Source: Plasmodiophora brassicae (lineage: Eukaryota). From it: DNA of 64,000 bases. Under the pieces are notes generated by a model, which worked only from the letters and a program-made list of their open reading frames with translations, was not told where the DNA came from and did no database searches. The translations under genes and the position numbers were made by a program. The stretch covers positions 186,001 to 250,000 of the forward strand of contig CP145413.1 of the NCBI GenBank assembly GCA_036867785.1, in the 5' to 3' direction. Below, one piece after another: positions 2,369 to 63,285 of this stretch. Each line of letters begins with the position of its first letter. The stretch's first letter is position 1.

Positions 2369-5300
2369 ATGCTGGCCGACGGCGGCGGCGGCAACGCCGC
2401 CTCGTTGTCGGCGGGCGACGTGCGCGTCTTGTCACTGATGGTCAGGCGTGCAGAAGTGGCAGCGGAGGGCGCCAACCCGACGCTGCTGGATGTGCTGCGT
2501 CAGTACGATGACGTGCTTCGGGAGAGCGGCATCGTCGTCGACGCCGAGGATTCTCGGTATTATAGTGCCGTCCTGCGCCTGAGTCGAATGCCCGGTGACG
2601 ACTGGTGGCGGAAGCTCGCCATATTGGGAGGCAGTTCGCGTGCCGATGACGGGCCGGACCCTCTATCCAAAGTCCCGACTCCGTTCCCGCGGGAGGTTCC
2701 CGGAAGCCAAGAGCTGGACCTTCAGAACCTGCCAATCGGCAAATGGTTTGTCAGCGAGTCGTTCGTCAAAGAGCCAGATCGTGATGAGGAGCGACCTCCA
2801 CTTGTCGAAGAGTGCTTACGCGCTTGGCGGGATTTCGTCGTTCGAGAAAAAGAAGAACGACGGAACATGCACGAGATGGCATTGGCTTGGCAAGTGGCCA
2901 CATCTTTCGAACGCAACCGTGCCACCAAGCGAGCGTTCTGCGCATGGCGAAACTATCTCGCGGCCATGGAAACAAAGGCAGTCGCGATGGACAAAGAGAG
3001 GCGAATATCTGTGGCGTGGACAACGTGGCGAAACTACTTCTCGACGTTCAGGCGAGAGCGCGATGTCCTTGTCAGAGCTGTTACGTTCTGGGCGTCAAAG
3101 ACGATGACGCATGTCTTCAAGGCATGGCAGACACATTCTCGGGCGTGCCATGCTGTTCGTTCGTGTCATGCGAATGCCATAAGGAGACAGTTTCTTCAAA
3201 CGTGGGCTGCTCGAACACGTCAAGAAGCGAAGTTCAGGGCTTGCGGTTCTGCCATACGGAAATCCCACAGGATGGCTGTCTTGAGATCAACTTGGGACCT
3301 GTGGCAGCATCTTGCTCATCAGAATGACGCTACGTTCCGTTGCGTGCAGTATGGAAGCACTTTGCTGTGTCGTCGCGCTCTTCAGGTACCAGTTAGTGAA
3401 TTGCCGCGACGGGATGTCTAACGTGTGCAATAGGCATGGAGGATTGCTTTGGCGCATTCAAGGCTGGTCGCGCTGTTTCGGTACAAGCACACCTTAAAAA
3501 CAGTCATATCTGCTTGGTCGCGCTACTCTAAGGCGCGAAATGAGTATGCTTCTACTATGTTCAAATCCGGCAAGCGAGCTAAATTGCAATGTCAGGCGAC
3601 TATTGCGTGAAGAGAGATCAGTTAGCGAAGTCGCTCTCGTCATCGTTCGTTCCAAGTTCCGCCGTTGGCGTCTCATTGTTGGGCGCAGGCGAGCATTCAG
3701 CATAATCGAACGTATCATGGTATCAGCGATGATGCGATCGGTGTTCCTCACTATGCACAACGATGCACTTGATTCACTGCACAAGAAGATGAAGTGGGGC
3801 CTTGCATGTGCGCATGCAGAATTTGTTGCCATGCGGGCTGCGGTACGCTTCTGGTGGGAGGACACTAGACGACAACGGGACTATTCGTCGCGAAAAGTAA
3901 CATTTCGCCGGATGCGGGCGAGAAACGTCATGCGGTATTTCATGTCCCTGTGGCATGGGCTCGCTTGTGACGCAATGAAGTAATACCGGCTATCTCTTCT
4001 GTCGAATGTCGTCTCAACTTTATCCGCAGGCACCGTTCGGATATCGCTCGAGCCATTCAGCACCACGATCGCTATCGGGTTCTGTCCGCGCTGCGATCAT
4101 GGGAACAGTTTAAGAAAACCCGATCGGAACGTGAGCGCATGTACCTGAGCGGCCTTGCTCACTGGGTTCAACGCTGCGCATCGTCTTGCATGGCATGGTG
4201 GAAAAGCTGGGCAAATGCGAGACGCCAAAGGCGAAGACTGTTAACGGTTGCGGATGATCATGCTCACCGAGGGCACATGACCTTGGCGTTTCGTTCATGG
4301 CGCAAGCTTTGCCTGAGACGCCATACCCAGATAACCGCGGTTCAGTCTATGATGTCTCGCTTTTCCGTTTCGACTTACTGGGGTTACTGGAGGCAACAGC
4401 TGTCATTGAAGCGTTTCGTTTTCGCTCTTCGGCGCGTGATCTGCGTTGACCAGGAGCGTTATGTTTTCAACGCATGGCGTGGCTATACAACCCGCCTCTC
4501 GCTTCACCGGGCGGCAAGTTCCAAGTTTGCTCGAGACCGCTTACGTCAAGCGTTTCTGCAGTGGGCTCTGCACTGGCGTCAGCGACAGATCATATCACGC
4601 GTGTTTGCCATACTTTATCGCTTGGAGATACGCTCAGCTATGAACACTTGGGCATCTGTCTGCGCTAAAGAACGTTACACCATCCGTCTTGGGGAGTCCT
4701 TTCGCGCCAAGCAACAGAGGTCGCTCCTTAAACGCGCCCTTAGTTCGTGGATTAGACAGTAAGGTTTTCGACAAGGTTTCCATTGGCTTTTACTGACGTC
4801 CCGTTTGTAGATGGGCATTTCGCCTGGGGGTTCGTCGTCTATCACGTGCAGTTAGCCATGCTGAACTGCGGAAATGCCAGCGAGACGCGTTTCAGCGATG
4901 GCGGCGGTTACTACCTGCACTGCAAGAAACGCAACGTGGCATTTTATTACTTCAGTCCCGGGTCAGGCGCAATGCTCTACGCTGCCATCTATCGGCATGG
5001 GCTGCGTTGACAAACTACTTTTGTCGGCTCTACCGGGTCAGACGACATGCCGCTTTTCGGATTTGGGTTAGACAAACTCAGGTATGCGAGTGCTGCGTTC
5101 TCCTCGTTGCTCGCTTATATATCGTTCTCGATACAGACAAACCTCGTAATACGCCCCTTCGTACGACGCAAGCGTTTAGGGAGGGCAATTCGCGCTTTCA
5201 AAAACGTTGTATCGAGGAAGGCCAGACACTGTGCCGACATTGCATTGGCTAGAATGCTCCTCCGCAGGCGTATTTTGACAGCATGGTCTAAACTTGCTGG

Positions 5301-8300
5301 CGATGCCCGTACAATGCGTGTACAAGAGACCAAGATCGCGAGGTTCACTACCAAGCGGTGCCTGAATTTCTGGAAACGCGTCGCGTCGCGTTCTCGGGGT
5401 CACCGCATAATGGCCATTCAGGTGGGAAACAGCGCAAAGCTCCGTTTGGTTTCGTTAGCTTTCAGACGGTGGCGCAACGCATTCTCGCAAGTTCTGCATC
5501 TGCTTGAGAACCTGCATCAGGCCGAGATGTACTGCTGCCGTCGGAAGCTCACCCATGCCATCCGTCATTTTCGTGTCTACGCGCTTCGACGAGGGCAGAT
5601 CAGAAGTTTGACGAGCGTCGCAATGGTCCGCATTGCCCTTCATCGATGGCATCGCGTCGCTGCTAATTGTTGCCGATATCGTGGCCTTGCAAACACTGTG
5701 GATATGTTTCGTTTGCGAAAGAGCATCAAGCAACTCCATGCCTTCGCTCGAGGACGCAACATGTATCGCGAAATGCAAAAGCGTGCAGACAGTCTTTGCA
5801 CATTCCTTACCTTCAGGAGATGGTATCGTCTGACGCCCACCCTCAGCCTGATGTCATCCACTTCCTCCGCGTTCGCCCGTCTCTCCCGAAACTGCCGTTT
5901 ACGTATGACTTTCGGCGCATGGCTGAAGACCTGGCTCCGAAGGCAAAGGTCCAAGAGATCTGCGGTCCGCATGATCGCTGCCATGGTATATTCGCAAGAG
6001 CGCCGCGCATTTAATAGCTGGATACGATTTGCACGCGACCATATCACTACTGGTGTAATTCGTCTCCTAGCCATGAGGGCTTCGATGCGTCAAGCCTGGC
6101 ACATTTGGCTACAGGGCTTCAGGTGTCGACAACTGTCTGTCCGGATCTCACAGAGGCGTCGCGCTGATCTTCTGCGGAATTGTGTTCAAGAATGGAAGAC
6201 GTTCATCATCGCTTCGAAGCTGCGAAGGGAATGTATTTCCAATCTATGCGTCAAGCTGATACATCCAAGTTGGATGCGAATTGTTGGCCAATCGGCAATC
6301 GCAAGCTGGCGAAATTGGGCCCTACGACAACGCTGTTTGCGAGGGTTATGCGAAGCGTTCGCTGAACGTCGGCGGCCGTCACGCGCCAGTAAGGTATTGC
6401 GGGCTTGGCTGATTCTATATGGCGCCGTTAAAGTCGGCCAGGTAAGGCAATGTCACCTTCAGGGCATCTCGCGTTGCTGACATCTGCTCTAGGTCGTCGT
6501 TTTAAAGGCCCATTTTCTAGCGTTGAAGCAGAGGACATATCAGTCAAAATGCTTCAGCGAGTTCAGAAGGTCTCGTCTTTCAAAGTCACGGTTCTTCTAC
6601 TTCGAGGCATGGCAATTTCGAATCACTCGACGCTACCATGAGCGCAATCTCGTTGCATCGACCCGTATATTACACAGTTCACAGCTGGTACGACAAATCG
6701 TGTCATGTTGGCGGGCTACTACACGGCGCCTCCAATCAGGGCGAATTTGTAACGCTAAGCGACATCGTTCACTGGTCACGTCCCATTTTGTTGCTTGGTA
6801 AGAGCGTCATTTGAAGGCACCCCTCGTTTCAAGATGGTTTATACTTTGCTTTAGGCAGCGCGCCGTCCACGTTTCTGTTATTGCTCGCCAAGAGGTATTT
6901 GTCAAGTCAGATTGCTGGACTGCAGTCGGTGACCTGACTACGTTACCAGGTTGGTGGCTTTATACAGCGCTGCTCACCATCTGTATCTCGGTCGTTATTC
7001 GACAGAGATGGTAGAGGAGGCGCACCCGCATTGACTGTTACTGCGTTTTATGCGCATGTCCCTGTGGCCCATCCGTGGTCCCGCCTGTCACTCATTCGTT
7101 CGGCCATCAAGAGCTGGGTGCACGTCCACGAACGATTCTCGTTCAGCAAATGGCGAACATATGTTGCTGGCCGAATTGCGAACCGTGCACTTTGCTCTCT
7201 GGGATCAACCGCTTTCGACTCCAGACGGCGACGGCAAGCAATTCGGGTATGGGTTGCCTTCTCTCGAAGACGTCGGATGGGAAAGGCATCGCGAATGATG
7301 CATGCTATCAGCTTGCGTTCTCGTTACTGGCAGTTGTGGGTCGCTGGCTATACAGATGCACGTACAAGAGAAATCCTTCTGAAACGGGCGACGTTGCACT
7401 ATCATCGTACTTGCCTGTCGTGGTTCCAAAGTTGTTGCCGCCAACTTGGTGTAATAAGAAGCGCGTCCTCTCAAGTTTTAGCGATGCACCTACGTTTGCA
7501 GAGCAGGGTCGCGCTGATTGGTTGGTGGCGCAGGCTTACGAGTCTCAAGACTGCCTGTCGACAAGTTCAGGCTGGACGCTTCTTGAAACCGACCTTGTCG
7601 ATTTGGATTGCGCGGTGGCGCCAGCGATCGGAACGCACAAAGTCGCTGCATGCCAGTATCCAATCGCGTCGTCGAGATAGATTGTGTCATACGTTCCTGG
7701 CATGGCGCCAAGTGACAAGCCAATCAGCAGAGCTTCGAACGATCATTCGTGGATTCCGCTCCTATTACGACGGCAGAACAGCGGCACTGTGCTTCATCAA
7801 TTGGCGTGACTATTCTCGTCGGCACCAAGCATTCTTGAGTAGCATCTACAGGATCTACTACAAGAGCACGGCCGGGTGTGCGCTCGTCAACTGGATCAAC
7901 GCGGTACGCATCTCTAAACGTCTTCGCTGTCTCGAAAACAACTACAGGTGCATCGACATTCAGCAACTTCGCAAACTCGTGATTACTGACCATCGTCGGT
8001 GTAGGTTCTTCCAAAAGAAGTGTCGCGCCAGAATGCGTCGGAGCATTCTGAATCACTGGGTTCGCGTCACCAGGACAAAATCGACTGTTCACCACCTTGA
8101 ACGACGTGCAGTATTGATACGATACTTCAGACGTCTCAAAACGTCTGTGGTCAATCGTCAACGTGACCAGTGGCTTCGTGATGCCATCGGTCACTCACGT
8201 CGGATTAGTCTCCGTCGAGCCGTCTTTCGCGCTTGGTTTGCATCCACTTCACGTATCACGTCGACAAGGCACACGCAGATGTCCACCGCATTACTCACTT

Positions 8301-13288: not shown

Positions 13289-15958
13289 ATGGCGTTGTCA
13301 TCGCCAGGGCATCGACCAGGTCAGGCGGGTGAGGTTCGCGAGGCCGGGTCGTCGCGTTTGCTCAGCGAGCTGGAGCAATGCCGGAACGTGGACGTCGAGC
13401 TGGCCGAGCGGCTGCAGGCGCTGCTGGATCAGCGGCAGGTCCTGATGCAGTCGAGCGTGCTGGCGGAGATCGCGGCGAACAGCCTTGGGCCGGTGGACGA
13501 GTCGCTGAGGAATGCGGCGCCGCTTGTCGCCAAGGTGGGCGGGGCGAACACGCTCGCCACCGCCATCTCCAGTAAGGTCCGCGAGCTGGACTGCGCCCAG
13601 TCCAGGCTGCGTCTCGCTCTCGAACAGGTCGACCTTGTTCTCGACCTGAAAACCGCAATCGAAGCTGTCAGTCCCGCGTTGGGCAGTACGACTCGCTGAA
13701 TTGTCGTTCATGATTGGCGTCAGGTTCGATCAGCGTTGGTGGATAACAATTTCGAGGAGGCTGCGAAGCACACCAGCCGTATGCTGCGACAGTATCGTCG
13801 ACGGAAGGCGGCCTCAGATCTTATCATCGACAACATCGAGGACGATGAAGACGTGTCGTTCCGCGTCCTAATCGGGCTGGAGGCCCAGTTGCGCAGTGCA
13901 ATTCAGGATCGTTTCAACAAGTCCACCAGTGACGAAGAGGTCAGCTCACCTGTGAAAGGTCGCTCACCTCACGGTCCCCATACGTTATTGGATAGACCCT
14001 GCGATATTGCCGGCTGCTGTCCCTTGTTGGCCTGACGGGGACAGGATTGGTCAATTATTGCGACGTTCTTGGCCGCCGCCTGGACGAGCAGCTGAAGATG
14101 CTCAAGTCCAGGAACACACTTGAACGCCTGACGGGCATATTTGACATGATCTCGGACTTCATTCGTGACCACGAGAAGCAGCTCCAGCAGGATTTCGGAC
14201 TGGGAGCGCATTTGCGACTGGCACAGATCATGCAGAAGTGTGCAGACGTGCACGTTGTCCCATTGATCAAGAAGTTCCTTACGCAGCGAAATCTTTCCGA
14301 ACTGGCCAGCCAGCTGAACAGGGCTCCGCGTTCGCCAGGCGCAGGCGGCGCAGAACATCCTGTAATGGATCCTCGCGACCTCGACGTGGTCCTCGATGAG
14401 GTTGCACTTCGTGTTCATTCAGATGCGCCTCCGCTCTAACATGCTCGTCAGATTGCCCGTATCACCAGCGAATGCGAAATGTTCGACATGGACTTGAGAG
14501 CGGCATTTACGCACGGTGCCAATACGATGAAAGAGAACAGCCCCGAGCTGTACGAAGAAATGTCAAAGTCTGAAGACGTACGACGACGGCATGTCCTACC
14601 AAACGTTCTTCATCGCAGTAATCCAGTTGCATAGGGGACGAAAATGGTTGCAGTCAGTGGCATGAACGTGGCTGTCCAAGAGGTCATTGGCCATTACGTA
14701 GCCCTGGAACATTACTATATGGTCAGCAATGTCGAAAAGGCGATGGCGGAACCAAGTGGCATATTGCCTGGGGCTCACACGTCTGTCTTTGTCGATGACG
14801 TGTTCTACATTGTGAAGACGAGCGGTTCCCGTGCACTGAACACGCACAGTATGACCAGCGCTATCGCTGTGCTTAACAACATCAACTCTCTCCTCGAGCA
14901 TACGTACACGTCTTTCATTCGAGATCGCATCCATGTGACTCAAGCTGCTGCGTTGGAAGCAAGCTCTGTGTTCTTCACTGGTCGAGCAGAGCACGACGCG
15001 ACGGTTGCGGAGGAACTCGTTGCCCTTAATAACGCGGATACGAGTGCCCAGAACGTCGTCCTTTTGAAGGAATTCTTCGACAGCGAATTGAAGCAAATTG
15101 GTCCCAAAGGTAATCTGCTGGAATATCAACATGTGGTTCGCTCTCATCGTGCGTGGCTACCTATTGCAGACCCGTATGACGCTATCATTGAGCAGTGTCT
15201 CGTCGACCTGGCGCAAATTGCACGGTTGCTTCGACGAGAGGCATCCGCCGGCATTTCGAAGCACATGAAGTCGATCCAGTCCGACCTGATCCCCTACTGC
15301 GACAAGTTCGAGGCCGTCTCGTACGAGATAACCGAAGCTCAATTCAACGCGTTCAACGTCGATGATCCATACGTCCAAAAGCTGATCATGGCGTGTGAGC
15401 AGTACTTTGAACAGATACGGGTCAGTGATTTGTGCACTCTCGGAGGTCTCTTGTCCTGATTGTCCAGTTGTGTTCAGCCGAACGTTACCAGCAGCGTAAT
15501 GGATGGCATGGTGCTGAACCTTGCCAGCTTTATCGCTACCCGAATCTCGTTAATATGCTTCAACAAAATGTTCACCTTTGTAAGGCAGTTGGGACGAAGT
15601 ACCGTTGTACAACTGATGATAAACGATACTGTCAGCATGGCGGGCTTCAAGTGGACAAGGACGTGAGAAGCCTGATCGCCTTTTTCTCGCAGATGTGCAG
15701 CAAGAGTGTACGGGACAAATTCCTGCGCTTGTCGCAGATTGCCTCGCTGTTGCAACTTTACGACGTAAGCGAAAATCCTAAACGTTACGTCATTCAGGAA
15801 GATATCTAATCACTACGGCGTAGGTTAAGGAAGTTAACGAATTGCGGGTCGAGGCAAGCGATTCCGAATTCTGGAGATTATCGCCTCCGGACGTCAAGAA
15901 GATATTGAAACGGCGGAAAGAATTCTCGCATGAGAAATTTGACGCCTTGTCTATTTAG
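13289..15958 (+). CDS. COG4: Conserved oligomeric Golgi complex subunit 4
   Basis: AISSKVRELDCAQSR, VDDVFYIVKTSGSRAL, GGLQVDKDVRSL, VRDKFLRLSQIASLL and C-terminal WRLSPPDVKKILKRR. Confidence 0.9.
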
Positions 15959-28309: not shown

Positions 28310-29086
28310 CTACCAAATGGCGACGGTCGCTCCCAACAGGGCGAGAACGACATTGGCAATGACGCACGACGAAACGAGGGCGTTGCTCTTCATGGCAGGC
28401 GCCGCCGTCGACATCTGCGTGCCGTTGTTGGTCGGATTAGTGACCGTCTGCCCCGGGGCCACGACGGTGTCGCCGGCGGCGAACAGGTCGATGGGGATGA
28501 TGCCTTGGCTGTTATCCCCATGCATGTTGTAGGTGAGCGTCAGTGGCGGCCCTTGGTTGACAACGGGGATGTCGACGCCGTACGCCCACAGCATATTGGT
28601 GGTCGTGCCGGCAACGATGTCGATGTCGGTGGCTGCGTCGCCAGTGACCAGGCGGCGACGCATGACGATCGTCGTGGTGTTGTCCGGGTTGATGTGTCCG
28701 CTGACCAGCGCGACGTTGTCCTGCCCGCCGACGTTCACGTCGAGATCGGGTTGCTGGTAGGCGTGGGAGAACTGGTCAAAGACATTGGGGGTCCCGATGT
28801 GGTCAACCCAGCCGATCAGGCTATCAGTCATCATATGCCCGGATGTGGGGTTGTCTTTCGTCAGGCCGACTGCGATCCAGCCGCGGGTACCCGGCTCCAG
28901 TAACGTCAGCGCAAGCTCAACGACGTTGTTGGCAGCATCCGTTGTCCAGCCGCAACGCCAGCGCCCGGTCACCGTCACGGATCCGTTCACAGATTGGGGG
29001 CCAGGCGGGGGGACGTAAATCGTCCCGTGCACGCCCACGCAGGCCAGCGCAACGACAACAACCCAAACAGTACCGATCATCGACAT
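28310..29086 (-). CDS. Secreted, probably GPI-anchored DOMON-domain protein (copy 1)
   Basis: Signal peptide MSMIGTVWVVVVALACVGVHG, GWIAVGL..GHMMTDSLIGW, RRRLVTGD..D, MLWAYG, YNMH and a hydrophobic C-terminal tail. Confidence 0.88.
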   Translation of the reverse strand: MSMIGTVWVVVVALACVGVHGTIYVPPPGPQSVNGSVTVTGRWRCGWTTDAANNVVELALTLLEPGTRGWIAVGLTKDNPTSGHMMTDSLIGWVDHIGTPNVFDQFSHAYQQPDLDVNVGGQDNVALVSGHINPDNTTTIVMRRRLVTGDAATDIDIVAGTTTNMLWAYGVDIPVVNQGPPLTLTYNMHGDNSQGIIPIDLFAAGDTVVAPGQTVTNPTNNGTQMSTAAPAMKSNALVSSCVIANVVLALLGATVAIW

Positions 29087-29367
29087 GCTGATAAGACAAT
29101 CACCATTAGAACCACCAGTGCCCCATGACGAAGCAGTCAAGCATATCTAGAACGTCGTTCCAGAACACTGTAGAATGAGTGTGCCAGAACAATCTGCAGG
29201 TGCGTTTGGCACCAAGGGAGTCGGCCCCGGCAGACGTCCCTGTGCAACGTGTACAGCATGTATAACGTGTCGGGACCACGGTCACGTCGTCTGGTTAACG
29301 TCCAGTAATAGCACAAGCGTTTGACTTTGTTCAGGCAATTTGTATGGCAGATGCGCGTGCCAATAGT

Positions 29368-49249: not shown

Positions 49250-51562
49250 CTAGAATGCTTGGGCGTACTGCGATGGATGCGTCAGGACCTTCGTCCGGCG
49301 CTGCGACATGTACTTGATCATCTCAGCAACTACGATTTGGGTCAGTTGCAAACAGAATTGTGGCTGTGCACATGGTTTTACCGTTCGGCGTTCCGAGGCC
49401 CCTGTAGGCAGTCTGTTGTTAGTAGCGGGTAATCCAGCAATGCTCGTAAATGCTTACGTGACAGGATCCCAGCCTTTTGCTGCACTGAACCCGTGACAGC
49501 TCGAGCCACAACCGTCTTCTGTACATCTGTTGTCGCCATCCGTAATGTCGAAAAATGCAGCTGGATGCTCTTTAGCCATTAGGTAGAGAAACGGGTTAAG
49601 AAATCCTACGGCGTGAGGTCATGACTTGCACAGTACACGTTTCAGCATGCACCTGCCTAGTGGAGGCTCACTCCTCTTAAGTCGAATGGCGTTAAGAATC
49701 GAGATCACTCCTGCGAATGCAGGGGCAGACGCGGAGGTGCCTCCAACCGGAGTAACCTCCCCATCGAGTATACAGAGGTAGTTATGGCCAAGCGCAGCAA
49801 CGTCAGGATAGCCTCTCCCAGTCTCGGAAAACATCGTCTTCGGGGGCAGTGACTTGGTATTGTTCACTGCGAAACATTGAGCACCCGCTGTATGTCCTGG
49901 GAATTAAGGCACCTACAGTAATCGCTGACAGCATCATCCTGATATTGAGGACGTGTACTGTAGACACTGAATCCGCCTCCGGAGGCGAAACCGGACGCGT
50001 CAAATGAGACTGCAACCTCAGTGCCTCCTGCAGCGCACGAGCTCGTTTTGCAGATCGGCTCAACCGGGTCCACTACCTCACTAGGGTCGTTGAGTTGGGT
50101 GGCTCCCACCGACGTCACGAAAGGTGACGATGCTGGAAACGCCGGGTGGAAGACAGCATCCTGGCAGTCGGGATCAGTTCGACCTATGGCGACGGTTACC
50201 GACTGCATCGAAGTTTCAGATGAAGTGCATAGTTACCGTTGCTTCCACTGTCACCGCTAGCGACCAAGATGGAGACACCACGAAGACCAATCTTCATGAA
50301 TTCGATATTTGTCCTCTGGTCAATTGATCACGGCTAAGAACGTTGACACCTCGATACGGATGGTATCTGTTTGCCACCTTGACGTATTCCTTGGAATCAA
50401 TTCCGAGAGTTGAACAGTCATTGTCGACATCGCACTGAGCCACTTCGCTCCATCCCCATGATAGGGAGATCACAAGAGGGACCTCCTCAGCCTCCATGAA
50501 GTCAACTGCAAAGTCGTACATCCAGTTGTCTGCTGTCCAGTACCTACAGTCGAGTTGGCCCAGGGTACGCAGTCGACAAAGTCTTTCGGCATACCAGTTC
50601 GTTGAGTCCACTCCAACTGACGTGATATACTGGACGTCTAGCGTGGCTTCAGCGTCCGGGTAGTCTGAATCGAACGGTCCGACAGTGTGCGATATTGCTG
50701 TCGTGTTGATTGCAACATCCGCGTAGAACTGTTTCAGGTCCGCTGGGCTGTACGAAGCATCATCTTGGAACTATGAAAGCAAATTGTAGCAGGCTGAGCA
50801 CATTTGGCAAGAGTCTCCCTACCTCGATTGCCGCCTGTGAGCATCCCCGCGCATCGACCCCATCTTCGATTTTGTAAAGGCTGCTCAGGGTGCTGGGAAC
50901 AACATTATATCCCTGCTTACAGCGATGAGCGGCTTGGGAAAGCGACATGACTGAGGGCTTGCAAATACCTCGTCAGACTGGCGACCCGACAGGTGACGCA
51001 GAACCCTCGGCTTGCCAACCGGGAAATCCGAGATGGCGGTGACGAGCTGGATAATTGGTGCCAGGTACGACGGGATGGAGCACGGCCCGAACTGGCGAAC
51101 CAGGGTCCGCCCCGTTTCGTGAACGAAACTGTACAGTTCCGTCTGGAACAACGACTCCACGCATTTGACTGGGGCGGTGACTCGCAAGGAATCGCCAAAG
51201 TTCGCAATGTGGTCCTTCCGGACGCCATACGACATGAGCCATTCGATTATTGGTGTCGTTTCCTCCTCCGGCGGTGACACCAGGCTCTTGATCGCCGCTC
51301 GACTCATCCACTTGCCGTACGACGGCGAGTCCGGGTTCGACAAGTCCCAGAACATATCCGTCAGGAAATCGACATTGTGCTGCCGTAACGCGATCCGAAA
51401 TCGAACACGCTCCAGCGGATGGCACCGGGACGCCATGGCCCACCCCGGCGGCGCTCGTGTACGATGCGAAATAACGACCCGATCTGGGTCGTCGTGGCCG
51501 CCAACCACCGTCAGCAACGCGAGGGTTGCCACCGCCCACGACAGCATCGGTACAAGCCCCAT
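49250..51562 (-). CDS. TPP1: Secreted sedolisin / tripeptidyl-peptidase I (S53) with prodomain
   Basis: Signal peptide, prodomain DLSNPDSPSYGKWMS, EATLDVQY, ASGDSG, GRGYPDVAA, catalytic GGTSASAP and GWDPVT|GLGTPN. Confidence 0.93.
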
Positions 51563-51879
51563 CGACCGTAATGCAAAGTGGGGACAGCCGGGCATGTAAC
51601 ATCCCTGGTCAGACAGCGGCACGGGGCCGGTCGACTCCCTGTAACGCCCCGCCACTGGCCCGCCGTCGTGCACTGCCGCCTGAGGCGGTGCCGCCTGCGC
51701 GTTGTGTAACGCTTGTCAGCGCCCCCCGGTAAGCGATGCCTTCGATCCCGCCTTTGTTTTGCATCGCTCGCAAGGCTGGGCGGTTGTTGGGCACCTGCCA
51801 TAAGCGCTCCTGGTCGCGGTGGCATGTCATATCACAGAATACCAATGCGGGTGTTCAGTGGATGGGGATTCAAACGGCG

Positions 51880-54536: not shown

Positions 54537-55052
54537 TAAAGTTGCAACACCGCCTTAAAGTTTATTGTTCATGATATAGCGAATGAGCACCAGTGAAGAT
54601 CTGCGTTAGTCGCCGTTGACAAACAGCTGACCGTCGAGCGAGACCGGGAGACCGGCTCCGTCCTCCACCCGCGGCTGGCGGTTGCATTTGTTCTGGCGTA
54701 ATTATTAAGTCTATTGTTCCTGACGGAAAGAATGAGCCCGCTAGGTCAAACAGCTGACCGTCGAGTGAGACTGGCTCCGTCCTGTACCCGACGCACCAAC
54801 TACTCCTTCCTGAGCACGACACGCTGGCTTTTCGTCCGCGGGATGAACCTATAGATTCGTCCCGCGGGAAATGCCGCTTCGCCCCGCGGGATCAATATGA
54901 CGTTTCATCCCGCGGGATGTGATCCCGCGGGATGAAAAAGTACGTCCCCGCAACAGGGCCATTGTGTCGGGCGAACAAGTGGGCAGTGGCTGAGTGGCAG
55001 CACAGGATATTTTGTGGCGTGGCGCACGTTTCGTACCGCTTGTTCCGGGACG

Positions 55053-57548
55053 ATGCTCAGCGCTGGCGGTGACGGGAACCACGCCGCGCTGCACGCCCGC
55101 ATCGTCAGCGCGTCCGAGCGCCTGTCGCGCCTGCGCGGCATGTGCCCGAAGTCGTCGTCGGCAGGTGGAGCGTGCGGCTGGCGATCCGATCTCGTTGCCG
55201 CGCTGCGAGGGGACCTCGTTGGCCTCTGGCACTGTATCAAAGGCGATGCTGAACTGACCAGATCAGTTGCCCTGTATTTATTCCGGTCGAACAACGCTGT
55301 GGCCGATCAGTCTCAACTATTTGCGTTGCTGGAGATCGCCCTTCTTGACAGTGGGGATGTTTCGACTCTGGTATTTGCCATGTGGCAGCGATTTGACGGT
55401 GCTGAGTTCGTCGCTGCTACGTTTGGCCATCTGGTCACATCGCTCGTCGCCCCGGGTACCGCCTCGTTAAACCTCGATCTCCAGGTCGTCATCAAGACGT
55501 TGGAAACGAGTGCGCCTCTTCCGACACTGGCGCCTCTCGCCGCGAGCAGCAATCGACGATTCCTACGTTACTCCATGGACGATCACGCTGACGAGGGCAG
55601 TCGTTCCGGCTCGAGGTCCCATATTCAACAGCGAACACGAACGATCCGTAATCGCCTGGACGATCGTGCTGAGCTGAGTGTCGCCATTGTCGACGAGTTC
55701 CTGGAGTCGGTACGCGCTGCATTCGCCGGTTTCCCTCCAGCGTTCGCGACGGCCCTAAGCATCATCCGTCGTACGCGCCCAAGGGACCTGCGGCCACTCT
55801 TTCTCGAATCCGTCGTTGCATCCGTGCTGGAACACCCACACCATCTGGGCACTCTGCCTTCGTACTATCTTGACGACCAGGCGTGCACGAACCTTCAGCA
55901 CCTTGTGCGGATCGTTCGCGCTGTTGGACATGGCCGTCATTTCGGAGGCTGCTCCGCCGCTGTCATCAACAAGTTCGTTGATGAATGTGGCCCCCGCGTA
56001 GACCAGCTGATCAACGATGTCCTTCCACGCGACGAGTTTTCAGATTTGATGATGGCAACGTCGAGCGCGCACGCAGTCGATTATGTTGTTGTTCCCGAGC
56101 GCGATCTTGGATCGCTCCTGCGAGCAGTTTGCTGCACCGACAGAAATCGTTTAGGAGTGAAATTGCAGGAACTGTCGACAAACACAACCCCCGTTGATGA
56201 AATTTCAACCAACGAGTTGAGGCTCGTTTCGCTGACGGCAATGCCAGTGACACCGACTTCTAACCAGTTTGAGCAACACAAGTCATCAGTTGAGATCCTT
56301 TTCGATTGCCTCGGCGAACTGCCCGTGTGCGCAACGGTTCGTTATGGGGAGTCGTTCCTTCAGTATCTCGAACGCGTCGCCGCATGCGCTGAAATCTCTT
56401 CTCGGGCGCACAGGCCCGAGGGCATCGTTGCAATTTCGCCAGCCATTCTGCGCCTTCAGTCGTTCATTCGTACGCGACTGGGTGATTCACAGGTTTCCTG
56501 GCCGTTGTTGCTATCTTCCCATCTGGATACTGCTGTTGCGCAACAGGAGCACTTGCTTCAGTCTCAAGTGTTTCGCTGTCAGTCGGCCTTGCAGTCAGCC
56601 CAGACAATGGATGCGCATCTGGGCAGACTGCAACGAGATACCAACGCGCTCTCGAGGCATGCGGCAGTCAAGCACTTCATCAACACTGCCCGAATGAATT
56701 TTCGCATCGTGATTCGGTCGTCATCTGCACTATCGAAATCCAGCGGGCCAACCAAAGCAAGGTCAATGTTCAACGGCAAGAAAGCACCAGCGTCAACGTT
56801 CGAAGTCCCATGCTTGTCGGTTCCGCAGATTGTACGTGAACTCGAGCAGTTGGCGCACGGTCCGTACTGGGAAATGATCCCTTCCGTGCTCGACGCGATC
56901 ATGCATCGCATCCGACAAATCATCCCCCCTGGTGGCGGTAACCCCGACGCGATGACGCGCGACCTCTATCGATTCATTGTTGCCCGACTATACCCTGTTC
57001 TTTTCTCCCGAGCTAGCGCTGACAGCTCTGACACACTTCAAGCTCAGCTAGAGTTGTACTCCAGTGTCACGCTTGAAAACCTGGATCTCGTGTCATCGCC
57101 GGCCCTCGTGAGTGCATTGGGCATTCCCATCCGGGAGCTGTCGCGCATCAATCGCTGCATCAACCCGAACGAGAAAGTCAAATGCATCGTTGCTGCAACA
57201 CGGTTAACGGTCGACGCTCTCCGTGTCGAGCGGGAGTCGACCGACCTACCTGGGTCGGATATCTTGATGCCTGCTCTGGTGTACATTATTCTGCAAGCGC
57301 GCCCAGCTGATCTCGATCGCAATTGCAGTTTCTGCAGCATGTTCTGCTCTGATGGCGTCCTGTCGAGGGGCGGCACGACCGATGAGGATGACGAGAACGA
57401 CGAAGGCCTGAGTCGGTTCTGCCTCATTCAGTTCCTGTCTGCTGTGAAGTTCATATCTCAGATGACGGCCCTGTCTATTTCTCCGTGCTCTACCCCATCA
57501 TCATCAGCTGAGCGCAAGAGATCCGCACAGAATGCCCGCGCGGCGTAA
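55053..57548 (+). CDS. GAPVD1: GAPVD1/GAPex-5-like RasGAP + VPS9 domain protein (single exon)
   Basis: RasGAP-like LFLESVVASVLEHPHHLG..CTNLQHLVRIV; VPS9 NPNEKVKCIV, GSDILMPALVYIILQARP and RFCLIQFLSAVKFI. Confidence 0.8.
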   Translation: MLSAGGDGNHAALHARIVSASERLSRLRGMCPKSSSAGGACGWRSDLVAALRGDLVGLWHCIKGDAELTRSVALYLFRSNNAVADQSQLFALLEIALLDSGDVSTLVFAMWQRFDGAEFVAATFGHLVTSLVAPGTASLNLDLQVVIKTLETSAPLPTLAPLAASSNRRFLRYSMDDHADEGSRSGSRSHIQQRTRTIRNRLDDRAELSVAIVDEFLESVRAAFAGFPPAFATALSIIRRTRPRDLRPLFLESVVASVLEHPHHLGTLPSYYLDDQACTNLQHLVRIVRAVGHGRHFGGCSAAVINKFVDECGPRVDQLINDVLPRDEFSDLMMATSSAHAVDYVVVPERDLGSLLRAVCCTDRNRLGVKLQELSTNTTPVDEISTNELRLVSLTAMPVTPTSNQFEQHKSSVEILFDCLGELPVCATVRYGESFLQYLERVAACAEISSRAHRPEGIVAISPAILRLQSFIRTRLGDSQVSWPLLLSSHLDTAVAQQEHLLQSQVFRCQSALQSAQTMDAHLGRLQRDTNALSRHAAVKHFINTARMNFRIVIRSSSALSKSSGPTKARSMFNGKKAPASTFEVPCLSVPQIVRELEQLAHGPYWEMIPSVLDAIMHRIRQIIPPGGGNPDAMTRDLYRFIVARLYPVLFSRASADSSDTLQAQLELYSSVTLENLDLVSSPALVSALGIPIRELSRINRCINPNEKVKCIVAATRLTVDALRVERESTDLPGSDILMPALVYIILQARPADLDRNCSFCSMFCSDGVLSRGGTTDEDDENDEGLSRFCLIQFLSAVKFISQMTALSISPCSTPSSSAERKRSAQNARAA

Positions 57549-57768
57549 CGTCAGCGCTTCTCCTACGTGCCTCGTCTTCGAGCTGGATTGTGGTTGTCGG
57601 TACTGCCGTTCCTCATGAATTATGCGACTATAATATACTTGCATAGTGTGTTTATAGTGTAAACCTGTCTTTTTCGAGTCGCGATAGGGAATACTCCTTT
57701 GCAACTGTTTATTGCACATACAGCAGCAGCAGCTGCCCGCGAATAAGCCGGAAATGTGACCTGATAGC

Positions 57769-60431
57769 TCAGTCGTGGTGCAGCGCAGCGTCGATTGCTG
57801 CATAAGTCGACGAGTTCCGCTTCAGGATTTCGTCACAGGGGCCAAGGAGCCGCACGAAACTGGCGCGGTCCAGTGTCACAACCTTCAGAGGAGCATCAAC
57901 AGCGATCACGTTCGCAGCACGAGGCTGGCATCGTTACAAGGGTTAGCGGGTAGACGCTCCATGTCGGAAAGAGCAGGTTACCTGATCGTTAAGCAACGCG
58001 AGTTCGCCGAAGTAATCCCCGCGCTTGTAACGCATCACTTCTTGTGCCTCAGTGTTGCCTGGAAGAACTTTCGTTGCAACAGCCTCTCCGTCGACAATGA
58101 TATAGAAATTATCGCCGGGCTCATTCTGGCGGATGACGTACTCGCCGGGCTGATAGGACTTCTCCAGAAGACAATCGGCGACCTTTGCGATCTCAGTCCG
58201 GTCGAGCGAACTCAGGATCTGCACGCTACCCAAAAACCCTGTATTGCGGTCAGTAATGGGCAGTGCAGTGGGTCACCCAGACGTGTTAAGCACCTTCATA
58301 GAGCGTCCGCTTCTGGCTTGTAGTATCCATGACTACACGTCTGAATGTTGGCCTGTCAACAACCCAGACGAGGATATCTCCTTTTGCTCGAATCGACGCT
58401 GCGCGAGGGCTATTGTACATAAGCGCCAATTCACCGAATCCCTCTCCAGCTTTGTAGGTCTTAACGAGAACAGGCGGGCCGTCCTTCTTCTGCACGAAAC
58501 ACTCCGCTTCGCCCTGCTCACCGACATAAGTGGACGAAATATGCCTCCAGCACCGTATGTAGCTCACCTTAGAGAGAATATAAAAGTTGTCACCTGGTTG
58601 GCCTTGTCTAATTACATATTCGCCATCTTTGTACGCTTTCTGGTACATAGCATCCAGGATGATCTCTCTTTGCGCGTGATCAAGACCGGCGAAGAGGAAG
58701 TTCCCTTGGATCGATTTGAGAATCGATGCCCTTTGGACAGGGGTCTTCGGGACAGAGGCCGATGGCGACGCATTCGACGGAATCGACGTCATTGCTGTCA
58801 AGCACATGAGCGAACAAGAGTATACGCATAGTGGCACGAACCGACGTACCGGCAACAGGCTCAGAGGAGACAGCAGTACGGCGGCGGCGCATGGACAGCT
58901 GGGTAGAGTTCGCATCGCCTGCACCGAGCAGCGGTTGGGGCACCACAGTGACACCACTGACGGCCTGCAACTTTTCGTTGTAGATCTTTTGTTCAATCGC
59001 GTTGTAGTTGTCCGTGTTCCGCTTGAGAATGTGGTCGATCGGACCCAGCAGCCTTGTGAAGGCGCCTCGGTCGAGGGTGACAGTGGTAAGGTTTCCGACA
59101 GCAATGACGTTGGCAGCACGCACGTCCTGGTTGATCAACGCCAGCTCCCCAAAGTAATCGCCTGGATGTAGCTCCAGGACGGTGACGGGTTCGTCTTGGA
59201 AATCGAGCGATTTGGTAACCTGCATTGATACCGTTATGCGCATCGAACGTCATACACGAAGCGATCCATCCGCCCTACTTTGGCGTTCCCTTGCACGATA
59301 ATGTGAAACTCCTCGCCGGTTTCGCCTTGGCGAATAACGTAGTCGCCATCCTTGAAATTCTGTTCAACGAGGGCATCCGCCACTCGTGCCCTCTCCGACT
59401 GGTCGAGAGACGCAAGGATCTTCACAGCCCCGAGGAACTGCTCGTACTTGCGACGGGACGTCGATGTGGTCTCCATTAGCATCTTACGGAACGTTATGCG
59501 ATCAACAGCCCAGCAGACAACATCCGTCTGCGCAATGATCGTCGCGGCACGCGGGCTGTTGTACATCAGCGCCAGCTCGCCGAACGATCCGCCTTTCGTG
59601 TACGTTTTCACCTGTATTTCTGTCAACGAGAGTGCGCCGGTTGAGTAGCATAAACGGCGATACCAGCTTTGGAGGTGCACCGTCCACAGACACGTAGCAG
59701 TTGGCGGTCCCGCTATCGAGAACGTAGAAGTAGTCACCTTCCTCGCCCTGTTTGATAATTGATTCACCGGCCTGCAAGCACCGTCACGCTCAGGGCGCTC
59801 CAAATCGCAGGGCCGAAGACAGCAACTACCGCGTAGCGCTTCTCAGCCATGGCGTCGAATATCATCTGGAGCTGGTCGGCGCTCAACGACGAGAACAGGA
59901 TGTTGTTCCGCACCGATTCGTCAATGCGTTCCAGCTGTTCTTGTGTCTTCGGAACGGCAATAGAGGCGGGTGCGTCCGCTGACGCCATAAAATGGACCTG
60001 GGGCAGGCCTCTCAGCAACCGAAATTAGGATGCGCGTCCAGCATGGCGTACGGGTTCAGCGGAAACGGCTGTGCGACGACGGGCCTTGCCGCGAGGCGTT
60101 GTCTCAGCGGGCAGATGGGAAACGTCATCGGATAGATCCATCGCATTCTCTGCCGAACCGCGGCGACTGGCCCGCAGGCTATGGGCGGTCGACGATGGCC
60201 CGCGTTCCTTGTAATCGGTCAAGAACCCAATCATAAACTAGAGGACATGTGAGGTTCGCGAACAGTACAACGCTCTGCGCCGGGACCAACATCAATGGGA
60301 TCCTCTGGCGTGTTCAGGAACAGCTGTTCCAGCATGTCCTTCAGGACGCCATCGATCTTCGTTTGCGCGTAACGTGACACGCGCTCCAGCTCGGTCGCGT
60401 ACGACGCGGAGTCGCCGTTCGCGCCCGACAT
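57769..60431 (-). CDS. PKA regulatory subunit-like protein with tandem duplication (D/D + 2 inhibitor sites + 4 cNMP-binding domains)
   Basis: D/D-like [107 protein letters not shown]. Confidence 0.92.
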
Positions 60432-61217
60432 CTAGCGCCCAGACCCGGACAGCCAGCCCCCGTCTTCCGTCTCGGCGCACGCCCAACCGATACCGACAGA
60501 CCGACCAACACGATTGTGAGCTGCGGCCACACTTTCGGTCCACAGGCCGACACAGTGCCCAAAAATACTACCGTACAGCGGTTGCTGCGGGCTCACACGA
60601 AAAAAACCGTTCGACAGTCCAGCGAGGCGCGGGGCCTCGTTGTCCTGTCGGACCCACTACCTTCCTCATCAGGCGCCTCGCCCGCCTCGTGGGTCGTGTG
60701 ACTCGTACCCCATCGGCACCCCGCTTTCGATCACGTGTTCGGTGACTACATGCATGCATCCTGTTCTTATTTCGGGGCCCTTATGGTCGCCACATCCGTA
60801 AGCCCTGTCAGCCCTATGTAGAGAGCTACGTCGCGAGTGCAGGCTGATGTACTGTCTTCCTCCGAACCCATGACCAAGATGTATTTGTACGGGGTCGCGG
60901 CAGGCTGTTGGCCAACCTGGACTGATTCTGGGGCGGTGACATCGCCAGCCATGCATGCGCGCGTGTGCATTGGGCAGCACCCGCAGTTGCTGACGTCCAC
61001 GTGGCTGGGCAACGTGTTCCTGTCGGGCGTGGCGCATCGAGTGAGTCACGAACGGTTGCAGCGGGAGATGCGGCATACCGAGGCAGGCACGCGCCTCCAC
61101 CGTGCTGTGACTCGCTAGGCGCGCGGTGGTCTGAACCTGCGACCCTCATTCCAACAAGAGCCAGCGCGCGACAACAACAGCAGCAGCACCACCGCCACCA
61201 CCACCCCAGCAACAACA

Positions 61218-61670
61218 ATGCAAACCCGCCAGGCTCGCTCCATCACTGGCCACCTGCCGCCCCACAGCCTGCACGGCCCGAACCCATCCATCAAGCGCAA
61301 GTCCAGGTCGGGATCGCGCAAGACCCACGCGGCCAAGAAGGTGGCCCACCGTAGCCCATCCCCCAAGCCGACGGCCGCTCACCATCATCGCTCCCGTTCG
61401 CCGGTGGCGCACCACCGTTCCGCTTCGCCGGCGGCGCACCACCGTTCCGCCTCGCCGGCCGTCCACCGTCGTTCGGCGTCGCGTTCGCACTCGCCGGCCG
61501 TCCACCATCACGCCAAGGCCGCTCACAAGCACGCCAACGGGGCGCATGCTCACCCGCAACCCGCTGGCAAGAACGCCCCGCTGTCCCCTCGCCACGTCGG
61601 ACCCACCGCGAACGCGTTCAACGCGGTCATGGCGATCGCCCTGAAGAAGGCGTCGGAGAGTGCCGAATGA
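61218..61670 (+). CDS. Small basic His/Arg/Ser-Pro repeat protein (protamine/H1-like composition)
   Basis: 150-aa ATG ORF with AHHRSASPA-type 9-aa (27-bp) repeats and essentially no acidic residues until the last four. Confidence 0.65.
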   Translation: MQTRQARSITGHLPPHSLHGPNPSIKRKSRSGSRKTHAAKKVAHRSPSPKPTAAHHHRSRSPVAHHRSASPAAHHRSASPAVHRRSASRSHSPAVHHHAKAAHKHANGAHAHPQPAGKNAPLSPRHVGPTANAFNAVMAIALKKASESAE

Positions 61671-61757: not shown

Positions 61758-62123
61758 CTAGTCGTGCTCGAAATGGTCGCGATCCCGGTGCCGATGCTCA
61801 TGCACCTCGTCGCCTCTGTCCGTGTTCTTCTCCTTGTGCGTGTTCACCGTGTTGATCGTGGCGATGACGTTGCCGTTGAAGTTCTCGTTGCCGTGGCCCT
61901 CGTCTTCGTTGTCGTGGTGATGGAAATGGTGGTGGTGCCCGTGGTCGAAATCATGGTCCCCGCCATCAAACCCGAACTCATCGTGGTCGCCGTGGTGGTG
62001 ATGATCGAGGTCCAGCAGGCCGCCATGGCCCATGACTTCATCGAGATCCATCCCAAGCTGTGCCCAGCTGCACTGCATCACGAACGCGAGCAGAGCAACC
62101 GTCACCAGCACCCACCGAGCCAT
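61758..62123 (-). CDS. Small secreted His/Asp-rich protein
   Basis: Signal peptide MARWVLVTVALLAFVMQCSWA; mature part DHHHHGDHDEF..DHGHHHHFHHHD..HEHRHRDRDHFEHD. Confidence 0.8.
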   Translation of the reverse strand: MARWVLVTVALLAFVMQCSWAQLGMDLDEVMGHGGLLDLDHHHHGDHDEFGFDGGDHDFDHGHHHHFHHHDNEDEGHGNENFNGNVIATINTVNTHKEKNTDRGDEVHEHRHRDRDHFEHD

Positions 62124-62196
62124 CGTCGCCAGCGGCCCGCGACGAGGTTCACGAATGGACGGAATCGATCTCTGTCAGGTTGATTTTCACCAGCGG

Positions 62197-62217: not shown

Positions 62218-62487
62218 GGCCAGCGAAGTTGGTGGCACCCTTCGTACTGTTGTCTCCTGGAGAACAGCCACGCGTGGGTGGATCCGCAGCACATCGATTC
62301 CACCGCACATAGAAGATGAGCGCTGTATGGTCTGGAACCTCGGACAAGAGCGCGCTGGGCATACGCTTCTGCAATGTTCTGGAATCACGGGGAGCAAACA
62401 GGTGAAAGTGTATTCTGGATACAGCTAGACTATCCACAGGGCCGACCGGGGGTTGCCCGCTTTATCGACGTCATTCACGAAAAGGTT

Positions 62488-63285
62488 ATGCGTTCAGTGG
62501 AGGTGCTCTCGATGTTATCATACCGTGTTTGGGCGGTTGCCGTTGCGCTCAGCGCTGCTGGCGCATATGGGGCGATTGATCTCCCGGCGCCTGGGCCTCA
62601 GGCTGTGAAGGGATCGGTGACGGTGACCGGACACTGGCGTTGCGCCTGGAAGACGGATGCTGCCAACAATCTGATCGAACTCGAGGTGACCTTACTTGAG
62701 CCGGGTGAACGCGGCTGGGTCGCTGTCGGCCTGACGAAGACCAGCCCGACGTCCGGGCACCTTATGACCGACAGCCTGATCGGCTGGGTTGACGACGCCG
62801 GCGCCGCGCACGTATACGACCAGTTCTCCAAAGCCTATGCGCAACCTGACCTGGACGTGAACGTCGGCGGGCAGGACAACGTGGCGCTGGTCAGCGGGCA
62901 GGTAAACGCGGACAAGACAACGACGATCATCATGCGTCGTCGTCTGGTCACCGGCGACACTGCCACCGACATCGATATCGTGAACGGCACGACCACCAAT
63001 ATGCTGTGGGCGCACGGCATCGATGTTCCCGTTGTTAACCAAGGGCCACCGCTGACCCTCTCCTACGGAAAACACGAGGACGACGATCAAGGCATCTTCC
63101 AGGTCAACCTATTCGCCGCAGGCGACACCACGCTAACCCCGGGGCAGACGGGCGATGACGGTAAGGACGGCGCTGGCGGTCCGGACAACACGCCTGGCGC
63201 CATGAAGAGCAACGCCTTCGCGTCACCATCTACAATCGCCACCACCGTCGCCGTTGCTCTCGTCGGGACCGTCGCTGTGCTGTAA
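62488..63285 (+). CDS. Secreted, probably GPI-anchored DOMON-domain protein (copy 2)
   Basis: Signal peptide (start 62488 or 62512), GWVAVGL..GHLMTDSLIGW, RRRLVTGD, MLWAHG, YGKH and a hydrophobic tail; close paralogue of 28310-29086. Confidence 0.88.
   Translation: MRSVEVLSMLSYRVWAVAVALSAAGAYGAIDLPAPGPQAVKGSVTVTGHWRCAWKTDAANNLIELEVTLLEPGERGWVAVGLTKTSPTSGHLMTDSLIGWVDDAGAAHVYDQFSKAYAQPDLDVNVGGQDNVALVSGQVNADKTTTIIMRRRLVTGDTATDIDIVNGTTTNMLWAHGIDVPVVNQGPPLTLSYGKHEDDDQGIFQVNLFAAGDTTLTPGQTGDDGKDGAGGPDNTPGAMKSNAFASPSTIATTVAVALVGTVAVL

Follow-up and report, generated by a model that had tools for sequence, protein, structure and literature searches.

A tandem PKA regulatory subunit with two inhibitor sites and four cAMP-binding domains in Plasmodiophora brassicae, and similar forms in other protists

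Within a window of 64,000 nucleotides from Plasmodiophora brassicae, the whole stretch of DNA analysed here, we find a gene for a PKA regulatory (R) subunit in which one N-terminal D/D domain is followed, in a single chain, by two copies of a module made up of a pseudosubstrate site (RRTAV) and the cAMP-binding domains CNB-A and CNB-B. The canonical R subunit has one inhibitor site and two CNB domains per chain and forms R2C2 holoenzymes, as set out in the accessible part of PMC8339350, and both this layout and this stoichiometry are treated as fixed in the literature we consulted. The doubled protein departs from them, having two sites and four CNB domains, and is a variant rather than a canonical member of the class. 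It is real, expressed and conserved, assembled from known parts, common to many protists and apparently undescribed. The reading we prefer, to which we give a probability of roughly 0.65, draws on the sequence and on analogy with RI-alpha: each module would block one catalytic (C) subunit as RI-alpha does, the chains would dimerise through the D/D domain to form complexes of up to R2C4, and release by cAMP would proceed largely module by module.

Read from the minus strand of the window, the gene has the following parts:
57769 to 60431, minus strand: coding region of the doubled R subunit (ATG at 60431, stop at 57769; 721 residues)
60431-60291, 60237-60052, 59997-59830, 59771-59664 and 59611-59279, minus strand: exons 1 to 5
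59219-58850, 58794-58568, 58513-58294, 58238-57982 and 57924-57769, minus strand: exons 6 to 10
60432 to 60544, minus strand: 5′ untranslated part (contig starts at 60544, 60544 and 60539; the true start is not fixable from contigs)
57643 to 57768, minus strand: 3′ untranslated part (AATAAA at 57713; contig ends at 57643 for X3 and 57681 for X9)

The ten exons are separated by nine GT-AG introns of 52-59 nt each and hold no internal stops, and an in-frame stop codon stands immediately 5′ of the ATG. The predicted 721-residue product matches the P. brassicae database protein SPQ96369.1 (P0001) at 100%, and the UniRef name of that entry is already that of an R subunit. An older annotation, CEO95183.1, has 739 residues and retains intron 7 (window 58514-58567), which is stop-free and in frame and is removed in all three RNA contigs. 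The transcript evidence consists of contigs from four public runs placed on the region of the R gene. The gene-bearing runs are on record without an RNA label, and the RNA status of three is our guess, marked by their spliced contigs; contig depth is no measure of the expression level of the gene. In each of these three probable-RNA runs, which come from three studies, one contig has all nine introns spliced out, and in the one DNA-like run no intron is skipped in any contig. The initial annotation had proposed a single polypeptide rather than two genes, and the skipping of nine of nine introns in three of three probable-RNA runs bears this out. It had also placed the junction between the halves in one open reading frame at 58680-59243; the junction does fall within one exon, but the true exon is 59219-58850, the frame as given being a stop-to-stop frame that extends into introns 5 and 6.

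One contig, X1, extends from the R gene into a neighbouring gene, so contigs by themselves can join separate transcripts. Despite this, the position of the module junction inside exon 6, an open exon joined in frame to both of its neighbours, places the two modules in one polypeptide. X1 is one of two points in favour of an artefact or precursor, that is, of two adjacent genes, or of a single module without a D/D domain made in addition from Met422 or by cleavage of the linker; the other is Met422 itself, which lies in the inter-module linker directly ahead of inhibitor site 2, Plasmodiophora, Spongospora and Lapot all having a methionine directly before the second site. We give this explanation very little credence, as the junction sits in one open exon, contigs X3 (2430 letters) and X9 (2362) span the R gene alone, neither of them breaking off at the junction, full-length orthologues are present in independent assemblies, and the methionine is missing from 7 of the 10 proteins checked. 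The short-read contigs may be compatible with shorter isoforms, for instance from Met422.

A long open reading frame that encodes a VPS9 domain (54936-57548, plus strand) converges on the R gene, and contig X1 suggests that the 3′ ends of the two lie close together or overlap. Elsewhere in the window, DOMON-domain genes are found at 62320-63285 (plus strand; beginning with a signal-like sequence and ending in a hydrophobic stretch) and at 28310-29146 (minus strand). A small open frame at 61758-62174 (minus strand) has a signal-like N-terminus, a His/Asp-rich body and no Pfam match, and its product is possibly a secreted metal-binding protein, judging by composition. The basic open frame at 61119-61670 (plus strand), also without a Pfam match, is rich in Arg, His, Ser and Lys, with HHRSASP-type repeats and a composition like that of histone H1 or protamines. 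Further Pfam matches are a Pro-kumamolisin activation domain at 50885-51715 (minus strand), a weak Sfi1 match at 5011-6480 (plus strand) and COG4 at 14635-15459 (plus strand).

Along the chain the features of the R subunit are:
60199 to 60410, minus strand: D/D domain of the RIIa/Dpy-30 clan (residues 8-60; interrupted by intron 1)
60154 to 60165, minus strand: RRGS in the N-linker (residues 72-75; Spongospora has RRES at the same place), which we take to be a putative PKA consensus site
60064 to 60078, minus strand: inhibitor site 1, RRTAV, with Ala at the P site (residues 101-105; aligned to RI-alpha R94-I98)
59444 to 59898, minus strand: CNB-A of module 1 (residues 143-257; cassette at 59584-59543)
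58986 to 59443, minus strand: CNB-B of module 1 (residues 258-390; cassette at 59153-59112; capping Tyr384)
58884 to 59003, minus strand: inter-module linker of 40 residues, from the capping Tyr of the first CNB-B to inhibitor site 2, all in exon 6
58869 to 58883, minus strand: inhibitor site 2, RRTAV (residues 425-429)
58298 to 58696, minus strand: CNB-A of module 2 (residues 469-583; cassette at 58438-58397, with the same sequence as that of module 1)
57790 to 58297, minus strand: CNB-B of module 2 (residues 584-715; cassette interrupted by intron 9; capping Tyr711)

The two pseudosubstrate sites and four cAMP-binding domains that had been claimed at the outset are all recovered, RRTAV occurring twice and Pfam cNMP_binding four times (E 2.6e-85), as are the four conserved phosphate-binding cassettes, FGELAL....R-A-A, at residues 211, 335, 537 and 661. 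In such cassettes Ala after the Arg marks the cAMP type, and Ser or Thr a preference for cGMP; Ala follows in four of four here. Pfam finds no kinase domain in the chain, which stops at 57769 with transcripts ending close by. The protein is like PKG, including the multi-CNB apicomplexan enzyme (PDB IDs: 5DYK; 4RZ7), in having several CNB domains per chain, but PKG has its kinase in the same chain together with one autoinhibitory region, whereas the P. brassicae protein has two inhibitor sites and no fused kinase, and by this and the cassette Ala it differs from the PKG class.

By profile comparison the N-terminus is a D/D-clan domain. A profile of 10 family N-termini searched against the PDB has D/D-clan structures as its top matches, before anything else (FAP385, E 9.6e-13; AK8, 3.5e-8; DPY30, 1.5e-5; the D/D domain of RI-alpha, 2EZW, 0.0067), and among the 479 proteins collected it also matches R subunits of alveolates and animals at their N-termini. 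At E≤0.1, Pfam detects Dpy-30 in 7 and RIIa in 6 of the 10 family members, all under the cut-off; the P. brassicae N-terminus by itself matches neither Dpy-30 nor RIIa and passes no Pfam cut-off, and a phmmer search of the PDB with exon 1 alone returns just FAP385, at E 1. The dimerisation-like domain described earlier is thus seen at the level of the family profile, with the single sequence below the Pfam cut-offs. The cysteines of the RI D/D domain are absent, the domain being closer to Dpy-30-like ciliary D/D domains, and its type is common to the alveolate single-module R subunits. On these similarities, R chains probably form dimers through it. FAP385 is a flagellar protein, a D/D protein of the radial spoke, and as the top match it gives a weak hint that the R subunit might be anchored at the flagellum.

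With the RI-alpha sequence P0299 as reference for residue mapping, both modules keep R94, R95, A97, E101, G199, E200, L201, Y205, R209, R230, R241, Y244, the pair E261/R366, D267, G323, E324, R333 and Y371. The cassette Glu/Arg pairs are intact (E213/R222, E337/R346, E539/R548 and E663/R672), the P site is Ala in both inhibitor sites (Ala104 and Ala428), and modules 1 and 2 agree at 29 of the 30 key positions compared. The one clear departure from RI-alpha is at the CNB-A cap, W260, which becomes Ser273 in module 1 and Thr599 in module 2; the position is non-aromatic in Spongospora and Leptophrys too, whereas Lapot and the foraminiferan Nonionella have Tyr there. RII subunits have an Arg cap in place of this Trp. 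The available portion of PMC12535202 describes the roles in RI-alpha of the inhibitor site, W260, E261–R366, R241–D267 and Y371, with W260 both capping CNB-A and contacting the kinase activation loop, and the part of PMC10959531 at hand gives a 4.6-fold loss of potency on mutation of W260. As this cap is replaced, the behaviour of the A sites may differ from that in RI-alpha. The protein is otherwise like RI-alpha and RI-beta (PDB IDs: 6NO7; 2QCS; 4DIN) in its D/D domain, pseudosubstrate, CNB-A and CNB-B, E261–R366 and Y371 cap, and its best animal match (E 1.4e-75) runs over residues 14-387, N-terminus included, but RI has one module where two are present here. We describe it as RI-like at the inhibitor site, yet do not assign it to RI, since the Trp260 cap is missing. 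Both modules look functional from their residues.

The constraint on the two modules is visible between species. Identity to Spongospora is 80.1% in module 1, 85.0% in module 2 and 75.5% in the D/D domain, and 21.1% and 35.5% in the linkers, the latter value being for residues 391-421. A second inhibitor site, with Arg or Lys at P-2 and Ala or Gly at the P site, is present in 12 of 12 rhizarian-group proteins compared, and the inter-module linker measures 29-56 residues in 15 proteins. These comparisons favour the reading with one kinase on each module. Under another reading a chain would hold just one kinase, with the second module as a cAMP sink or internal competitor and its inhibitor site as an alternative dock. 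The alignment offers one point for this, the first 12-14 of the 40 linker residues resembling a C-terminal helix extension, but the kinase-facing residues of module 2 are strictly conserved in Endomyxa, Aquavolonida and Foraminifera, and the repeated, independent duplications described below include the inhibitor site; we consider it distinctly improbable. An argument from a minimum linker length was discarded, as the sites in Gefionella are 294-308 residues apart compared to 324 in P. brassicae, so shorter linkers exist.

That one chain could hold two C subunits, the capacity proposed initially, is quite probable from the two intact modules and the D/D domain. The preferred mechanism would run as follows. 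The chain would have arisen when, long ago, the whole module of inhibitor site and two CNB domains was duplicated within the gene, behind its one D/D domain. At low cAMP each RRTAV would occupy the active site of one C subunit, clamped there by its own CNB-A and CNB-B, and one R chain would hence carry two C subunits; the D/D domain would pair the chains and dock the pair on an anchoring helix, giving the R2C4 limit. Binding of cAMP at both sites of one module would release the kinase of that module, and the modules, flexibly linked, would be largely independent. The probable gain per anchoring site would be a twofold kinase load and a twofold capacity for local recapture.

Searches of the P. 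brassicae genome with SPQ96369.1 and a single-module alveolate R subunit returned the R gene, a PKG gene on C9 and some CNB genes of remoter kinship, and no second R gene was found. These searches scored the best candidates exon by exon, and a very divergent R gene could escape them, so the only R gene here means the only one found. The C9 gene was considered as a second R gene and rejected: it is a PKG with three CNB domains (C9:1041564-1044500, minus strand), and its N-terminus begins with MGNC, which may be acylated. Four further loci, on C3, C14, C20 and C19 (L032-L035), have at least three divergent CNB domains each, with about 20-40% identity in the matched stretches, and PKA-R features were seen in none of them; at C19, numerous CNB matches are spread across about 4 kb. 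Among the candidates scored there are two PKA-C genes, on C2 (P0360, 358 residues) and C6, for which the best matches are solved PKA-C structures; they are 64% identical across the matched stretch, with activation loops RTWTLCGTPEY.

Representatives of Endomyxa, Aquavolonida and Foraminifera have the same two-module layout, namely Spongospora subterranea, Leptophrys vorax, Lapot gusevi and Nonionella stella. Modules are repeated in tandem as well in dinoflagellates (strain MGD, Gymnodinium, Amphidinium, Polykrikos and Yihiella), in Chromera (three modules, with atypical sites), in Fabomonas and in Diphylleia (two modules of three CNB domains each), and a Gefionella okellyi protein of 3779 residues (P0230/P0480) holds six full R modules with six pseudosubstrate sites in its C-terminal part. 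Two or more full modules and no kinase motif are present in 104 of the 386 non-C proteins fetched, a query-biased set that includes close duplicates, and a strict pattern picks out an internal inhibitor site in 43 of the 104. Most non-rhizarian cases were taken from transcriptome assemblies, and the identity of about 50-73% between their modules speaks against misassembly; the Cladocopium triples, which are nearly identical, may represent gene arrays merged into one. Entries labelled Hirondellea, an amphipod, and Ploeotia, a euglenid, place among the rhizarian sequences and are probable contaminants. No named core cercozoan turned up, and P0019, an environmental protein with a D/D domain and one module, falls in with the first modules of Rhizaria; some rhizarians may therefore lack the double form. 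The initial annotation had considered that the architecture might prove both widespread and already described: widespread among protists it is, but we found no description or protein identifier of a double R subunit in the open-access literature, and subscription papers on R-subunit classification might have one. Among other unusual forms, R subunits with a three-CNB module are P0126, P0127 (Diphylleia rotans), P0167 (Stenamoeba stenopodia) and P0161, the module being doubled in Diphylleia, and P0016 (1859 residues) joins TPR repeats to two R modules and to a third CNB pair, which is divergent.

The P site is Ala or Gly in 89 of the 96 inhibitor sites recognised in tandem forms, compared to Ser substrate sites in 80 of the 118 recognised in single-module proteins (139 singles having no motif match), a comparison confounded by kinship. 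It is one of the points for supposing that both sites bind C subunits and that the chain is nevertheless mostly half-loaded, in which case the spare module would buffer cAMP and recapture kinase on its tether, so that free kinase would reach less far and last less long. Other points come from PMC7770493, according to which R in animal cells can outnumber C by up to 17-fold and C has been proposed to be recaptured by R close by, and from the six-module Gefionella protein, which resembles a kinase sponge more than a fixed oligomer. Two C genes against one R gene would, however, rather fill the sites. We regard a mostly half-loaded chain as possible but somewhat unlikely; it fits alongside full loading of both modules, which we prefer, and differs from it in the purpose of the duplication.

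The two halves of the P. brassicae protein agree at 53% of positions across 298 residues and have none of four intron positions in common, so the duplication is old. Trees of subsets (84, 44, 34 and 33 rows) of 125 extracted modules were built with LG+G4 and no mixture model. In one tree the rhizarian-group modules fall on a single branch (91/87) beside the alveolate single-module R subunits, a placement that is weaker in two other trees; those alveolate proteins are the nearest outgroup (99/96). Module 1 of Plasmodiophora clusters with module 1 of Leptophrys (99/96), which implies that the duplication predates the split between Phytomyxea and Vampyrellida. In AU tests, neither a duplication limited to Plasmodiophora and Spongospora (p 0.22) nor a rhizarian first-module clade (p 0.47) is rejected, so the dating within Rhizaria hangs on one starred branch. 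Outside Rhizaria the modules cluster by lineage and not by module position, those of dinoflagellates, Chromera, Fabomonas, Diphylleia and Gefionella each with full support. A single eukaryote-wide duplication is rejected (p 2e-5), as is one common to Rhizaria and dinoflagellates (p 4e-10). The trees point to about six independent tandem origins, unless the modules were homogenised within lineages, a process that could mimic independent origins.

The initial annotation had raised two different kinases per chain, or a two-threshold switch. Modules that are kinase-specific, or that open at different cAMP levels, would couple two kinases or give a two-step response, and the genome does have exactly two PKA-C-like genes among the scored candidates, 64% identical; the modules have also kept to about 55% identity since before the Phytomyxea/Vampyrellida split, and their CNB-B cassettes are not alike (INQDVRAA and LNDQPRAA). 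Set against this are the repeated RRTAV, the identical CNB-A cassettes, the agreement of the docking residues checked and of all but one of the 30 key positions, and a weak position-specific signal in Rhizaria, where first and second modules fall in separate clades in 11-34% of bootstrap trees. The proposal of distinct kinases or thresholds is therefore not sustained, and we consider it improbable.

Single-module R subunits, such as yeast Bcy1 (PDB ID: 3OF1) and those of Plasmodium (PDB ID: 5KBF), ciliates and Chromera (P0097), have the same CNB pair, but in one module and, in protists and fungi, usually with a Ser substrate site. Trypanosomatid PKAR (PDB IDs: 6FLO; 6FTF) is likewise a protist R subunit of non-canonical design; according to the portion of PMC10959531 available, it binds nucleosides rather than cAMP and has the substrate site RRTTV, whereas the cAMP-binding Glu and Arg are kept in all four cassettes here.

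Taken jointly, these results allow a wider reading that we hold tentatively, at somewhat below even odds, in which multivalent PKA holoenzymes are recurrent and undescribed. The R module would have duplicated at least six times independently, to give up to six modules, and in Rhizaria the double form would be the standard or sole R subunit, forming R2C4, possibly pairing two different C subunits, with a steeper, stepwise or more local cAMP response than R2C2 allows. The repeated origins among unrelated protists suggest a selectable advantage. A doubled R subunit that is apparently the sole one in its genome, in a family reaching from plant parasites to foraminifera, offers a natural test of stoichiometry, tethering and recapture in PKA signalling. 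PMC8256667 (Table 2) includes, among the genes that go down as Spongospora resting spores germinate, a transcript labelled a type I R subunit, possibly the orthologue of the gene described here. For plasmodiophorid biology, the doubled R subunit is the probable single cAMP gate of PKA.
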